From an uncultured delta proteobacterium (lineage in GTDB: Bacteria > Myxococcota_A > Polyangia > Polyangiales > Houyiibacteriaceae): a DNA stretch of 64,000 nt. The position numbers and the translations under genes are program-made. The DNA is taken from assembly GCA_963786865.1 (NCBI GenBank), contig CAWBAV010000006.1, positions 299,837 through 363,836 on the forward strand, in the 5' to 3' direction. Every line of letters begins with the position of its first letter. The first letter of the stretch is position 1. Below are positions 812 through 22,946 of this stretch, in pieces. The notes below the pieces were generated by a model that worked only from the letters and a program-made list of their open reading frames with translations, searched no databases and was not told where the DNA came from.

Positions 812-910
812 GAATCTTTCCTCGGGTCGCTGGGCTAGCACGCAGCCAGACCCCCCACCAACAAGCTCCCGCGGGGGCTTATTCGCAAAAATCGCCAATT
901 CCCACTTTTT

Positions 911-930
911 GCCAGTGCCGGTATCAGCGG
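911..930 (+). repeat. Short CAGYGY-type hexanucleotide array (3 units)
   Basis: gccagt gccggt atcagc gg lies directly next to the inverted 105-nt element. It belongs to the same hexamer family as 12194, 20771, 21951, 22731 and 22923. Confidence 0.5.
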
Positions 931-934
931 AGAA

Positions 935-1040
935 CTGCTCGCGACGGGCGTGCTCGCGATTGGGACCCACTCGCCCCCAATTCCTCAAGACGCCCCACGG
1001 CTAGGCTCGACCCAATCGCTGCGCTGCCCATCCCGAGCCG
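935..1040 (-). repeat. 105-nt imperfect-palindromic intergenic element, copy C (inverted, divergent centre)
   Basis: The reverse complement matches copy A (21481..21585) 29/30 in the 5' arm (cggctcgggatgggcagcRcagcgattggg) and 29/30 in the 3' arm (cccaatcgcgagcacgcccgtcgcgagc). The centre of about 45 nt is unrelated. Confidence 0.8.
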
Positions 1041-1143
1041 TCCTCCTCCGAACGCTTCCAGTGTCAATGCCGCTGGCGCGGTATGGAGGGTTTCTCTTAT
1101 TAAGCAGCTTGACCCCGGCTATTGTCAAAGCAGGCTTCGGCAC

Positions 1144-1377
1144 ATGACCAGGAAGAAGCAGACCACTAAGAAGTGGAAGAAGCAGACAGGTAGCAACCCG
1201 CTGGACACCGATTTGGAACAGAAGGTCATTGCGGTTCAGTTCAACGCCCGTGAGATGGACACACTCCGCGAGGTTCTGGAGGCGCACCAGGCGAAGGGCA
1301 GCCGGGTCACGGTCAGCCAGCTAATCCGCTGGGCTGTAAACCACGCGGACTTCTCGGACATGCCCTTGGTTCCGTGA
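1144..1377 (+). CDS. Small hypothetical protein with a ribbon-helix-helix-like core and a Lys-rich N-terminal tail
   Basis: 77-aa ORF. KVIAVQFNAREMDTLREVLEAH...VTVSQLIRWAVNHA fits a beta-strand / helix / helix (CopG/Arc-like) layout. There is no obvious SD, and GC is lower than in the neighbouring genes. Confidence 0.4.
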   Translation: MTRKKQTTKKWKKQTGSNPLDTDLEQKVIAVQFNAREMDTLREVLEAHQAKGSRVTVSQLIRWAVNHADFSDMPLVP

Positions 1378-12171: not shown

Positions 12172-13398
12172 CTAGGGTCGGTCGCGCGGCAAGGCCAGCG
12201 CCAGTGCCAGTGCCGGTGTCAGCCGCCGCTGCCTGGGTCTACGTAGGCTGGAGTGGTTTCGTCGGTCAGGCGGTTTTCGAGGAAACCTTCTGGAAGAGAG
12301 ACTTTTTGCCGGCCGGCAGTCTTTCCTCGGGGCACTCGCATCGCGTCGGGAGGGAAAGGGTTCGGATGCGTCGACGGTGCGGAGTACTACTTCGAGCTCC
12401 TCGAGGCGGGTTACTCGCATCAGTCGCGATCGGAGCTTGGCGCTTCCACGGAAGCCCTTGGTGTACCAACTGCTATGCCGACGGAACATTCGCATCGCCT
12501 GGGTTTCACCCGCCCATTCGCTCAGCAAGCGCGCGTGCTCGAGCGCGATTTCGACGACCTCGCCAAAGGTCGGCGGGTTCGGCGGCTCGTGGCCCTCGAA
12601 GACCTCGGCCAGATCTCGAAAGAGCCATGGGCGTCCGAGACATCCCCGGCCGATCACCACGCCATCGCATCCGGTCATGCGCATCATGCGGAGCGCGTCG
12701 TGAGCTTCCCAGATATCCCCGTTGCCGAGTACTGGTATCGATCGAACGTGTTGCTTCAGGCGAGCTATCGCTTCCCACTGGGCATCGCCGTCGTAGAGCT
12801 GTGAAGCCGTTCGCGCATGCAGAGCAACGGCGGCGCATCCCTCCTCTTCGGCGACGCGACCTGCGTCCTCGTAGGTGAGCAAGCTCTCGTCGATGCCCAT
12901 TCGGAACTTGATCGTGACCGGAATCTCGCCCGCGTTCTGGACAGCCGCGCGGACGATGTTCGCGAGGAGGCGTGGCTTTGCGGGGATGGCCGACCCGCCA
13001 CCCTTGCGCGTCACCTTCGGAACGGGGCATCCGAAGTTCATGTCGATGTGGTCCACGTGCCCTTCGCCAACCAGCCATTTCACTGCTTCGCCGACGTAGT
13101 GAGGATCGACGCCGTAGAGCTGGAGGCTGCGCGGCGATTCGTCTTTGCCGAACTCCGCGAGCATCAGGGCCTTGGCGCGTCCCTCGACCAGAGGTCGCGC
13201 CGTCACCATCTCGCTCACGTAAAGGCCTGCTCCGAAGCGCCTGCAAATTGCGCGAAAGGGCCAGTTGGTGACACCGGCCATCGGCGCGAGCACCACCGGC
13301 GGCCAGACCGACATCGGACCAATTTCGATCGGCGCAAATTCTCCGAGGCGCGCCACGGGCACCGCACGGTTCAGCTCGTTCTTGTACACCTGCTCCAT
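12172..13398 (-). CDS. dus: tRNA-dihydrouridine synthase; the 3' end is probably frameshifted
   Basis: Observed motifs: LAPMAGVTNWPFR, DMNFGCPVPKVTRKGGGSA, VTIKFRMG, HARTASQ. After ...TVDASE the conserved Dus tail PFPPDAMRVPRGKTAGRQKVSLPEGFLENRL continues in another frame, ending at a stop at 12219. The in-frame tail is R/P/S-rich and non-homologous. Confidence 0.85.
   Translation of the reverse strand: MEQVYKNELNRAVPVARLGEFAPIEIGPMSVWPPVVLAPMAGVTNWPFRAICRRFGAGLYVSEMVTARPLVEGRAKALMLAEFGKDESPRSLQLYGVDPHYVGEAVKWLVGEGHVDHIDMNFGCPVPKVTRKGGGSAIPAKPRLLANIVRAAVQNAGEIPVTIKFRMGIDESLLTYEDAGRVAEEEGCAAVALHARTASQLYDGDAQWEAIARLKQHVRSIPVLGNGDIWEAHDALRMMRMTGCDGVVIGRGCLGRPWLFRDLAEVFEGHEPPNPPTFGEVVEIALEHARLLSEWAGETQAMRMFRRHSSWYTKGFRGSAKLRSRLMRVTRLEELEVVLRTVDASEPFPSRRDASAPRKDCRPAKSLSSRRFPRKPPDRRNHSSLRRPRQRRLTPALALALALPRDRP
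12194..12229 (+). repeat. CAGYGY-type hexanucleotide array (6 units)
   Basis: gccagc gccagt gccagt gccggt gtcagc cgccgc. It overlaps the 3' end of dus. Confidence 0.6.
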
Positions 13399-20770: not shown

Positions 20771-20840
20771 CGTGTCCGTGACAGCGCCAGTGTCAGGGCC
20801 AGTGTCAGCGTCAGCGCCGGTGCCAGCGTCCGTGTCGGCG
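20771..20840 (+). repeat. CAGYGY-type hexanucleotide array (about 11 units)
   Basis: cgtgtc cgtgac agcgcc agtgtc agggcc agtgtc agcgtc agcgcc ggtgcc agcgtc cgtgtc. It starts 8 nt after the DUF420 stop. Confidence 0.8.
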
Positions 20841-20960
20841 ACTGTTGTTCCGGACGCACATCGTGCGTCTGGGGCACGCCCTTCCTTGTAAGATCCTCTG
20901 CGGTTTGCTGGTGCAGCAGCTGGCCCGGATCTTGCTTCGTTTTTCGGGCAGGATTTTGCC

Positions 20961-21440: not shown

Positions 21441-21480
21441 ACGGCGGCAGTGTCTCTGAGTCGATATCTACGTAGGGGAG

Positions 21481-21585
21481 CGGCTCGGGATGGGCAGCAC
21501 AGCGATTGGGCGGGAGGCGAGACGTACGGAGTCGTAGAGAGACGGCCGAGCGGGCCCCAATCGCGAGCACGCCCGTCGCGAGCCG
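21481..21585 (+). repeat. 105-nt imperfect-palindromic intergenic element, copy A
   Basis: 102/105 identical to 22809..22913. The terminal arms are mutually complementary. It lies 96 nt upstream of the yeaQ-like ATG. Confidence 0.9.
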
Positions 21586-21681
21586 CCCCCCGGTGTGAAG
21601 CATGACGTTCGACCCGTTGGACCTGGGAATTCTTTACCCGTGGCTCGGTTTGTTCGACACTTCGCCCCAAGGAGAGCCTCG

Positions 21682-21933: not shown

Positions 21934-21950
21934 GCCCCCCGCGCCCCGAT

Positions 21951-22040
21951 CGTGCCAGCGCTAGCGCTAGCGCCAGTGGCAGTGTCAGCGTCAGTGTCAG
22001 CGCCAGTGCCAGAGATAGTGTCAGCGCCCACGTCCGTCTG
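21951..22040 (+). repeat. CAGYGY-type hexanucleotide array (about 15 units)
   Basis: cgtgcc agcgct agcgct agcgcc agtggc agtgtc agcgtc agtgtc agcgcc agtgcc agagat agtgtc agcgcc cacgtc cgtctg. It starts 18 nt after the yeaQ-like stop. It is preceded by ccgatcgtgcc, as is array 22923. Confidence 0.8.
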
Positions 22041-22058
22041 ACTCTTCTTTGTCATCGC

Positions 22059-22133
22059 GATCTCCTTTTCGCCTGTGTCTGGGGTCGGGCTTCGCCCTTT
22101 CGGGGAACCCCACACCCAGGCGAAAAGGAGATC
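22059..22133 (+). promoter_or_regulatory. Long hairpin sequestering the RBS of the four-helix-bundle gene
   Basis: The 27-nt arms 22059..22085 and 22107..22133 pair at 25/27 positions. The right arm contains AAGGAG (22125..22130), 7 nt before the ATG at 22138. Confidence 0.6.
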
Positions 22134-22137
22134 ACTC

Positions 22138-22464
22138 ATGCGACTCATCATTCAGCAACGGGCGCTCGAGGCAGCACGCGGGCTTCGGCAGGTGATGCCG
22201 GTCATCAAGAAGCGGGACCGGTCGCTCTTCGATCAGATCCATCGGGCGATGAATAGCGTCGTGCTCAACATCGCGGAGGCTGAAGGAAACGATCCCGGCA
22301 CGGCCAAGGCGCGCTTCGCGTCGGCCTGCGGGTCCGCCAAAGAAGTGCGGGCCGGCATCCAACTTGGAGTTGCATACGGCTACTTCCCGAGCGCAACAGT
22401 GAAATCCGTCGACACCGCGCTCGACGAAGTCTGCGCGATGTCGTGGCGGCTCTCGGGCCGCTAG
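22138..22464 (+). CDS. Four-helix-bundle protein (23S rRNA intervening-sequence protein family)
   Basis: 108 aa. DQIHRAMNSVVLNIAEAEGN...ARFASACGSAKEVRAGIQLGVAYGYF matches the TIGR02436/PF05635 pattern (NIAEG...GS..E). Confidence 0.8.
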   Translation: MRLIIQQRALEAARGLRQVMPVIKKRDRSLFDQIHRAMNSVVLNIAEAEGNDPGTAKARFASACGSAKEVRAGIQLGVAYGYFPSATVKSVDTALDEVCAMSWRLSGR

Positions 22465-22536
22465 ACACAGCCAAGGGCATCCGAGCCCTTGTCCCCGAAG
22501 ACCGCCGCTGTCCCCGCCACTGAAAGTGACGCGCGC

Positions 22537-22725
22537 AGGGGCACGGGCGAACGCGACGCGGGGTTCCGTCGAACGGCTCGGCTTGCAATTGTGGTCGGAT
22601 GCACTGGAGGGGTTGGACCACGCAAGCCTCGCCTCGGCGCTCACGCCAATCGGAGGTGGTTGCTCGCTTGCCGATTGTCATTCGCGACGTCGACTCCACC
22701 CCAGATCGCGTTCGCCCGTGCCCCT
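22537..22725. repeat. Perfect 20-bp inverted repeat pair separated by 149 bp
   Basis: aggggcacgggcgaacgcga (22537..22556) is the exact reverse complement of tcgcgttcgcccgtgcccct (22706..22725). Confidence 0.85.
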
Positions 22726-22730
22726 CCGTA

Positions 22731-22774
22731 CGGCAGTGTCACTCGCAGCGGCAGCGGCAGCGGCAGCGGCAGGG
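22731..22774 (+). repeat. Hexanucleotide array including four perfect CGGCAG units
   Basis: cggcag tgtcac tcgcag cggcag cggcag cggcag cggcag gg. Confidence 0.8.
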
Positions 22775-22808
22775 CCCGCGCGCGTGCATCGACGCGTACA
22801 AAGGAGGG

Positions 22809-22913
22809 CGGCTCGGGATGGGCAGCACAGCGATTGGGCGGGAGGCTAGACGTACGGAGTCGTAAAGAGACGGCCGAGCGGGACCCAATCGCGAGCACGC
22901 CCGTCGCGAGCCG
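22809..22913 (+). repeat. 105-nt imperfect-palindromic intergenic element, copy B
   Basis: 102/105 identical to copy A. It lies between the convergent four-helix-bundle and cstA genes. Confidence 0.9.
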
Positions 22914-22922
22914 TCCTCCGAT

Positions 22923-22946
22923 CGTGCCAGTGCCAGTGTCAGTGAA
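22923..22946 (+). repeat. CAGYGY-type hexanucleotide array (4 units) containing the cstA stop codon
   Basis: cgtgcc agtgcc agtgtc agtgaa. The cstA stop (tca on the + strand, 22939..22941) lies inside it. Confidence 0.6.

Follow-up and report, generated by a model that had tools for sequence, protein, structure and literature searches.

Which kind of element is the palindrome that precedes a moxR gene in an uncultured delta proteobacterium of the Polyangiales, and why does it recur elsewhere in the same DNA? The question is raised by a stretch of 64,000 nucleotides (hereafter the window) from contig CAWBAV010000006.1, which belongs to a metagenomic assembly. At positions 935-1040 of the window, an inspection of the letters alone had described the inverted third copy of a 105-nt palindromic element with conserved arms and a replaced centre (the original prediction). 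The analysis reported here revealed that this copy is a member of a large family, and that the element functions in the form of a single defined strand, which folds into a long and imperfect hairpin. Our preferred reading, held with somewhat more belief than doubt, is that the family is a hairpin repeat of the Polyangiales that resembles REPINs or miniature inverted-repeat transposable elements (MITEs) and is mobilised via a single-stranded intermediate by a putative enzyme.

Both arm patterns occur at exactly three exact places in the window, with none expected in shuffled sequences. The matches are at 1011-1039/937-964 on the minus strand (copy C, the copy in front of moxR), at 21482-21510/21556-21583 on the plus strand (copy A), and at 22810-22838/22884-22911 on the plus strand (copy B). 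The arm comparison of the original prediction was reproduced: copies C and A agree at 29 of 30 positions in each arm, with one difference between 1040..1011 and 21481..21510 (G/A) and one between 964..935 and 21556..21585 (A/C). The two arms are also complementary to one another as described, with 7 + 7 + 9 base pairs, one of them U-G, around a 6x6 internal loop, and the loop can additionally form two G-C pairs. The palindrome is real, but its limits had to be redrawn, as the helix runs 6 bp further on each side (GGAGGA.../...TTCTCC). The copies and their parts are as follows.

929-1046 (118 nt), minus strand: copy C, whole hairpin, supported by the arm patterns and the fold, with an ortholog upstream of moxR in locus L067.
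1046-1011, minus strand: 5' arm of copy C, consisting of P1 GGAGGACGGCTCG, a G, P2 GATGGGC, the loop AGCGCAG and P3 GCGATTGGG.
1010-965, minus strand: centre of copy C, subtype T1.
964-929, minus strand: 3' arm of copy C.
1047-1070, minus strand: position of the family leader of about 24 nt, 5' of P1, degenerate in copy C.
904-928, minus strand: position of the family tail of about 25 nt, after P1, which reads GCTGATACCGGCACTGGCAAAAAGT in copy C.
21475-21591 (117 nt), plus strand: copy A, whole hairpin, centre subtype T2, P1 GGGGAGCGGCTCG / CGAGCCGCCCCCC, with an ortholog in locus L053.
22803-22919 (117 nt), plus strand: copy B, whole hairpin, centre subtype T2.

The predicted folds are very stable. 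Folding energies of -70.8 kcal/mol (z -4.78), -71.2 kcal/mol and -73.7 kcal/mol (z -7.6) were calculated for copies C, A and B, respectively, with z scores from -4.8 to -7.6 versus shuffles, and the complementary strands fold more poorly by 4-18 kcal/mol. Over 124 nt, copies A and B show 93% identity, and they have a centre variant in common that is not seen in other genomes. The centre of copy C had been called unrelated to that of copy A. This holds for the pairwise comparison, in which 28 of 46 positions are identical, a value like that of composition shuffles (25.3 +/- 2.2, with 28 reached by 76 of 500). It does not hold family-wide, because the centres form conserved subtypes with the same skeleton, and the centre of copy C is another subtype and not a random sequence.

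Many more copies exist beyond the window. In a species-representative genome collection, the exact 24-nt 5' arm (one N allowed) was found in 84 stretches from 20 metagenome-assembled genomes (MAGs), and therefore the element is a family and not a local duplication. The degenerate 3'-arm pattern was found in at least 120 metagenome stretches, many of them chance matches in GC-rich coding DNA, and 38 non-redundant full copies were recovered from these matches. The carrier MAGs are labelled Polyangiales, Polyangiaceae, Sandaracinaceae, Myxococcales or Deltaproteobacteria, with the exception of two labelled 'uncultured bacterium' and one labelled Gemmatimonadales. The fragmentary MAGs contain up to about 14 copies each, and the window contains three in 64 kb. 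Many copies lie at the very ends of contigs, as is expected of repeats that break assemblies. A scan of viral contigs and a plasmid search yielded no copies.

Alignments of 79 and of 45 copies were used to derive a common layout. The hairpin has a length of about 118 nt, or about 165 nt including the leader and the tail. It is preceded by a leader block of about 24 nt with the consensus TACGTCGACTTCTACRN or ATCCATATCCATTCAAT. The outermost stem P1 (AGGAGRACGGCUCG) has 13 bp and is followed by a G opposite a G, which is a G-C or C-G pair in some lineages. P2 is GAUGGGC/GCCCGUC with an invariant U-G pair. Next comes the internal loop, AGCACAG opposite GCGAGCACG, which presents AGCAC on both strands and whose residues are constant while the stems vary. 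P3 is GCGAUUGGG/CCCRAUCGC, and it is closed by the apical centre of about 45 nt. After the hairpin follows a tail of about 25 nt with the consensus CCGGTGNCTCAGTTG...; on the upstream side, no conservation was found beyond -36. In an inverted comparison, the two arms are only 68-74% alike, and this asymmetry is itself conserved. The most conserved part is internal (P2, loop and P3), and the outermost stem P1 covaries. Among the individual copies, L033 (5467-5571) has a 5' arm that is paired with its own perfect complement and not with the usual 3' arm. Tandem 15-nt arrays, (GGTCGCGAGCACGGC)n, that have GCGAGCACG in common with the 3' arm of the hairpin were observed in marine metagenome contigs (L113, L117, L140, L156, L199, L201 and L205), and the 3' arm itself holds TCGCGAGC twice with a spacing of 15 nt.

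The centres fall into about four subtypes, with 26 (T1), 30 (T2), 25 (T3a) and 35 (T3b) representatives among about 120 copies, and every subtype was found in several genomes. All have a common skeleton, namely GCC-UAG, a 5-bp hairpin AGNCG/CGNCU, U-NAGGA and then GGC-GA-G. The arms are identical across the subtypes, and recombination within the arms could thus swap the centres.

Is the fold under selection? RNAalifold recovered P1-P3 from the 79 copies, with double changes in 9 pairs; the column pair 10/123, for example, is A-U in 41 copies, G-C in 32, G-U in 4 and A-C in 2. Covariation of P2 and P3 is impossible in this set, because its copies had been selected by the exact 5' arm. Changes in these stems were examined in copies found by nhmmer or chosen solely by their 3' arm. 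Compensated variants were observed for P2 (GAUGCCC/GGGCGUC, GAUGGCC/GGCCGUC and GAUGCGC/GUGCGUC) as well as for P3 (GUGAAUGGG/CCCAUUCGC, GCGAGUGGG/CCCGCUCGC and GCAAGUGGG/CCCGCUUGC). In the 45-sequence alignment, 92.3% of the cells are in standard pairs, compared with 89.0% in shuffles and 34-44% when the partners were slid. Thirteen pairs are altered on both sides, compared with 7.9 in shuffles (13 was reached in 0 of 500) and 3-7 after sliding, and the covariation score is 0.139, compared with 0.080 and at most 0.063, respectively. Because the structure was deduced from these same, mutually related sequences, the figures are supportive and are not formal probabilities. Stem covariation across copies, which had been proposed as a check of the original prediction, is present in all three stems in the 45-sequence alignment and the variant copies. 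In the centre, the P5 helix is just 66% paired.

The wobble pairs define the strand. Counts at variable sites are 52:2 and 73:4 in favour of G-U/U-G over A-C/C-A cells. A G-U pair on one strand is an A-C mismatch on the other, and therefore a single strand is the folding one, the minus strand for copy C and the plus strand for copies A and B. This asymmetry fits RNA and single-stranded DNA equally.

Stems that covary around invariant loops classically mark a functional RNA, and the strand defined by the wobble pairs, the very stable folds, the conserved nucleotides on either side of the hairpin and the common skeleton of the centre subtypes would also be in accordance with a family of structured non-coding RNAs. 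Each copy would be transcribed, either from the leader of about 24 nt or by read-through, and would fold and act as RNA. It could be a protein-binding or decoy RNA with the invariant loop and the GGA-containing apex as binding sites, or a processing or stability element of the RNase III type in the 3' regions of mRNAs, and its multiplicity would reflect duplicated genes or domesticated repeats. We regard this explanation as possible but rather doubtful. No sigma-70-like promoter was found beside any of the window copies, and the lack of conservation beyond -36 likewise speaks against this explanation. Terminator-like sites (a hairpin followed by a U tract) were absent at copies A and B and at copy C itself, and only 5 of 89 copies have a T5 in the 150 nt downstream. 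The weak pairing of the P5 helix does not favour an RNA either, and the strand bias is no proof of RNA because G-T wobbles are tolerated in single-stranded DNA hairpins as well.

The family does not correspond to a described RNA, as had been anticipated. Rfam (release 15, 4227 models) gave no match at the gathering score in the 64-kb window, and a search at E<=10 around the three copies retrieved only chance hairpins of microRNA precursors, with 13.7-21.2 bits compared with thresholds of 70-137. Rfam families have hairpins with covarying stems and invariant loops of the same type, but none of the models was matched. In a full-text literature search, no such repeats and no structured RNA of a matching kind were found to be described for myxobacteria or Myxococcota.

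The 5' arm also contains an AGGAGG 10 nt in front of an ATG (ATG GGC AGC ACA GCG ATT GGG ...), and the Shine-Dalgarno-like AGGAG and the ATG are conserved in nearly all copies. A small protein gene is nevertheless hardly credible. Apart from MGS(T/A)AIG, the encoded peptides show no relationship to one another, and the frame is closed after 15 codons in T2 and T3 and after 35 in T1. Variant codons are non-synonymous (ATG CGC GGC, ATG GCC AGC and ATG TGC GGC) where the opposite arm compensates, and the Shine-Dalgarno motif is buried in P1. The lack of peptide conservation and the variant codons, which track the base-pair compensation, led to the rejection of the small reading frame.

The genomic context was determined with an open reading frame (ORF) caller based on the G+C content of third codon positions (GC3), which is approximate and misses some genes including moxR, and thus all context counts are approximate. 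All examined copies are intergenic, mostly at the 3' ends of genes. The gene on the 5' side of the element has the same orientation in 38 cases (median distance 215 nt) and the opposite orientation in 17 (median 180 nt). The gene on the 3' side is on the opposite strand in 45 cases, with a median of 48 nt to its stop codon (mostly 6-97 nt), and on the same strand in 23 of 68 cases, with a median of 76 nt to its start codon; copies C and A belong to the latter group. The longer distance on the 5' side is due to extra modules that lie there, namely hexamer arrays and a structured module of 193 nt (described below). The flanking gene pairs are convergent for 19 copies and divergent for 6, and pairs with the same direction are divided 9 to 7 by the orientation of the element.

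The threefold excess of convergent over divergent pairs and the short distance to the converging stop codon, together with a stable fold on both strands, would suit a bidirectional transcription terminator or a protective hairpin of mRNA 3' ends that was recruited at gene ends. However, this is improbable. A U tract is present on neither side, six copies are flanked by divergent genes, and 23 precede a co-oriented start codon. Furthermore, an invariant 6x6 loop, a structured apex and a defined strand would all be superfluous in a simple terminator, and the extra modules on the 5' side account for the short distance on the 3' side.

Can the element, which the original prediction placed in the moxR leader, have a regulatory role there? 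The location was verified: the moxR ATG (811, minus strand) follows copy C at a distance of 123-124 nt, and copy A lies 96 nt upstream of the ATG (21682) of a yeaQ-like gene, the identities of the two genes being confirmed by the Pfam matches AAA_3/MoxR and Transgly_assoc (YeaQ/GlsB-like). Both genes are co-oriented with their copies, and the arrangements are kept in L067 and L053, respectively. In addition, a CCUCC just upstream offers the GGAGG of P1 an alternative pairing partner. Nevertheless, a cis-regulatory role as a riboswitch or attenuator of moxR and other downstream genes is very improbable. Downstream genes are co-oriented in just 23 of 68 cases, the element is found on either strand at orthologous genes, and copy B faces the 3' end of cstA, with only 19 nt between its 3' end and the stop codon of this opposite-strand gene. 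The 122 flanking proteins matched 163 Pfam families that have no common theme and of which none is dominant; they include IMPDH, GMP synthase, sigma-70, aminotransferases and molybdopterin enzymes. A riboswitch or leader was rejected on the grounds of the missing dominant family, the orientation flips and the low fraction of co-oriented genes. The position upstream of moxR implies no cis-regulatory role, as the copies adjoin unrelated genes, mostly at their 3' ends and in both orientations, and the element is probably incidental to moxR and not a dedicated regulator.

The comparison of related genomes revealed turnover. Among orthologous genes of different MAGs, the end that carries the element is the same, but both orientations occur and the centre subtypes differ (L013 T3, L041 T1 and L047 T2; L008 T3 versus L076 T1). 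Private compensated variants are common to dispersed copies of one genome, e.g., CGGGTCG/CGACCCG in CAXMRN01 and GAAGAAC/GTTCTTC in SHLP01, and in the QMMB01 copies the G-G position has become G-C. These genome-private variants and the private centre of copies A and B suggest that the copies of each genome descend from master copies or have evolved in concert. Tandem copies, solo 3' arms and truncated forms occur, and L110 and L167 are mini versions without a centre; in L167, P2 carries a triple compensated change (GAUGCCC/GGGCGUC). For an RNA that is conserved in place, the flips of orientation against orthologous genes, the persistence of solo arms, deletion derivatives and centre-less copies, and the occurrence of genome-specific variants in dispersed copies are all unfavourable.

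The hairpin also participates in larger units. In L175 it is fused to the 193-nt module. In L012, L031, L069, L046, L020 and L032, a composite of about 480 nt consists of an exact inverted copy of the 3' arm and the tail (about 42 nt, AACCGTACGATCGGAGAACGGCTCGCGACGGGCGTGCTCGCG), the 193-nt module and the hairpin, so that it is bounded by long exact terminal inverted repeats (TIRs), with the inverted arm copy about 300 nt upstream of the hairpin. In L069, this distant copy is a closer match to the 3' arm than is the 5' arm next to it. A 1-kb composite in the window (21934-22938) contains hexamers, a 23S_rRNA_IVP four-helix-bundle gene, the 193-nt module and copy B, and it takes up the space that separates the convergent yeaQ-like and cstA genes. 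It is missing in the syntenic L053 (719-730), in which the two convergent stop codons are just 3 nt apart. This is the sole empty site, and it concerns the composite, which occupies the entire intergenic gap. The motif CCGATCGTGCCAG is present at both ends of the 1-kb insert.

Taken together, the copy number, the private variants, the turnover, the presence or absence in related genomes, the tandem, truncated and nested forms, the indifference to gene function and the depletion at divergent pairs characterize a replicating interspersed repeat. The covarying stems, the invariant and roughly two-fold-symmetric loop and the defined strand point to selection on a folded single strand that is read by a protein. 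The suggestion of the original prediction that the element is either of the ERIC/Correia/MITE type or a stem-loop RNA with a variable apex, and that it does not belong to a described family, is thus supported by the copies, the covariation and the lack of an Rfam match. Of a MITE and an RNA, we lean towards the former, as a replicating DNA repeat.

We propose the following mechanism. The element would be copied and spread within genomes as DNA in a REPIN- or MITE-like manner, and we infer that it moves as single-stranded DNA and has a protein partner. P1, P2 and P3 would need pairing alone, whereas the invariant internal loop (5' AGCACAG opposite 5' GCGAGCACG) and the neighbouring bases would probably provide a sequence-specific protein contact. 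The partner would most likely be the mobilising enzyme, for which a single-strand-specific (HUH/Y1-like) transposase is a candidate, although none was found near the copies. The apical centre would be free to diverge into subtypes, which could be exchanged by recombination in the identical arms, and selection against the disruption of promoters may have left the copies mostly at the 3' ends of genes.

How does this repeat compare with known systems? Much is known about the interspersed palindromic repeats of enterobacteria, pseudomonads and Neisseria. REPINs consist of two conserved inverted ends around a less conserved spacer, form hairpins in single-stranded DNA or mRNA with frequent compensatory changes, and are doublets of repetitive extragenic palindromic (REP) sequences that are mobilised by REP-associated tyrosine transposases (RAYTs) (Bertels & Rainey 2011, PMC3116915). 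The Polyangiales repeat resembles them as an extragenic repeat of about 100 nt with tens of copies per genome, in having conserved inverted regions that flank a less conserved spacer, in the hairpin predicted in single-stranded DNA or RNA with compensatory changes, in the occurrence of singlets, truncated remnants and ordered clusters, and in its persistence across related lineages. In contrast to REPINs, its arms are not two copies of one REP and enclose an invariant asymmetric internal loop, the most conserved part is internal with a covarying outermost P1, the repeat is associated with the 193-nt structured module and hexamer arrays, and no RAYT was found near the copies. Therefore, membership in the REPINs is not established.

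The resemblance to ERIC and Correia elements is likewise partial. ERIC/IRU and Correia (NEMIS) elements are TIR-bounded MITEs of enterobacteria and Neisseria. Like these, the Polyangiales repeat is an imperfect intergenic palindrome in the range of 100-150 bp that is conserved across species, occurs in either orientation at orthologous sites, has size variants generated by internal indels and would form long RNA hairpins when co-transcribed. Unlike for these, no TA or other target duplication was seen and no related insertion sequence (IS) was identified; the ends of the hairpin-only form are not its conserved part, and long exact TIRs are found only in the composite of about 480 nt. Moreover, the wobble bias and the stem covariation argue for selection on a folded single strand and not on double-stranded TIRs. 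BIMEs of E. coli are mosaics of REP/PU motifs with other short motifs, and the Polyangiales elements form a similar intergenic mosaic at gene ends, in which the hairpin, the 193-nt module, hexamer arrays and a module made of an A-run, a hairpin and a T-run occur in variable combinations and orientations. However, the modules are far longer and individually highly structured, and they have no sequence relationship to BIMEs.

Several results weigh against a mobile repeat. A REP-RAYT system includes a cognate RAYT (Y1/HUH) gene in the genome, usually with the repeats on either side of it. An enzyme was not detected here: E. coli RayT (b0228), used as the query in tblastn and phmmer, was unmatched in 1.33 Mb around the copies, which is a weak negative because it covers the surroundings of the copies and not whole genomes and because a single distant query has a limited reach, and no RAYT was found near 127 strong copies. 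The flanking genes matched 163 Pfam families, and the 25 most frequent of these include no transposase family, in a scan that may miss RAYT-like proteins, as E. coli RayT itself has no Pfam match at E<=0.01. No transposase gene was present between the paired ends in the loci examined, and no related IS was identified there. No recurrent direct repeat that could represent a target-site duplication was seen at the junctions examined. A BLAST comparison of flank pairs yielded no clean filled/empty pair for the solo hairpin, being swamped by other repeated modules. Copy C and the copy in L067 are at the same place and in the same orientation before moxR, with flanks that are 88-89% identical, and the same is true for copy A and the copy in L053 before the yeaQ-like gene, a constancy that would also suit an RNA family. 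The conserved asymmetry of the arms is more readily reconciled with an RNA or with recognition of a single strand than with a classical REP doublet or double-stranded TIRs. The orientation of the 5'-side gene (38 of 55 co-oriented) means that the folding strand would enter read-through transcripts, in agreement with an RNA. The exact conservation of the 24-nt arm across 20 species-level genomes, together with the shared subtypes, is unusually strong for a selfish repeat, is one more point in favour of an RNA family, and could reflect a host function.

Tentatively, these results might be accommodated by a new class of functional structured nucleic acids kept by the host, possibly including the 193-nt module. 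It would be either a multi-copy protein-binding RNA with the AGCAC/AGCAC loop as the binding site, or the substrate of a new single-strand-specific mobilising enzyme that co-evolved vertically with the Polyangiales, REPIN-like without a RAYT. The readings as a mobile repeat and as a functional RNA are not exclusive, and domesticated repeats are common.

The modules that accompany the hairpin were also characterized. In the window, the following lie around copy B.

22535-22727 (193 nt), plus strand: second structured module, which precedes copy B, with a minimum free energy of -113.8 kcal/mol.
22731-22772, plus strand: hexamer array (GCAGCG)n, which separates the 193-nt module from copy B.
22924-22944, plus strand: hexamer array (GTGCCA)n, directly after copy B, which overlaps the cstA stop codon.

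The 193-nt module has a long covarying outer stem with multiple compensated variants (e.g., GGCGGAA/UUCCGCC versus GGAAAAA/UUUUUCC) and two inner hairpins. At least 19 hairpin copies of other MAGs are preceded by it, and an Rfam search with it gave no match. Intergenic hexamer arrays of the type (CAGYGN / CACTGR)n are present at 12194-12222, 20771-20842 and 21952-22028 in addition to the two arrays at copy B. Similar arrays lie beside many hairpin copies elsewhere, on either side and in either orientation, and sometimes exceed 80 nt. The small module consisting of an A-run, GGGGTCAGACCCC and a T-run, which resembles a bidirectional intrinsic terminator, is found near hairpin copies in L032, L053, L065, L011 and L067. 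It lies between the hairpin and moxR in L067 as well as in the window, where it is degenerate (885-915, minus strand).

The 23S_rRNA_IVP gene of the 1-kb composite is located at 22139-22464 on the plus strand, with ATG 22139 as the likely start codon. It is preceded by a hairpin with 27-bp arms (22059-22133, plus strand, 93% complementary) that buries its AAGGAG Shine-Dalgarno motif, and in L075 a homologue of the gene precedes a hairpin copy at a distance of 65 nt. At the other end of the window, copy C is situated in a divergent region of 332 nt that separates moxR from an ORF of 77 aa (1144-1377, plus strand). This ORF is also called as a gene in the source assembly and has only a weak DmsR_N-like match.

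The repeat family, the 193-nt module and the hexamer arrays appear to be undescribed, according to Rfam and the literature, whereas the kind of element as such is well known. Together with the module and the arrays, the family appears to be a recurrent component of the intergenic DNA of a widespread uncultured Polyangiales lineage of soils and marine sediments. It breaks MAG assemblies, and it offers a ready lineage marker as well as a covariance model for annotation. The covarying stems, the invariant symmetric loop and the defined strand make it a clear target for finding the protein that reads it. If this reader is a transposase, the REPIN-type idea of a 'vertically inherited replicator' would be extended to a new phylum; alternatively, the reader may be an RNA-binding factor.

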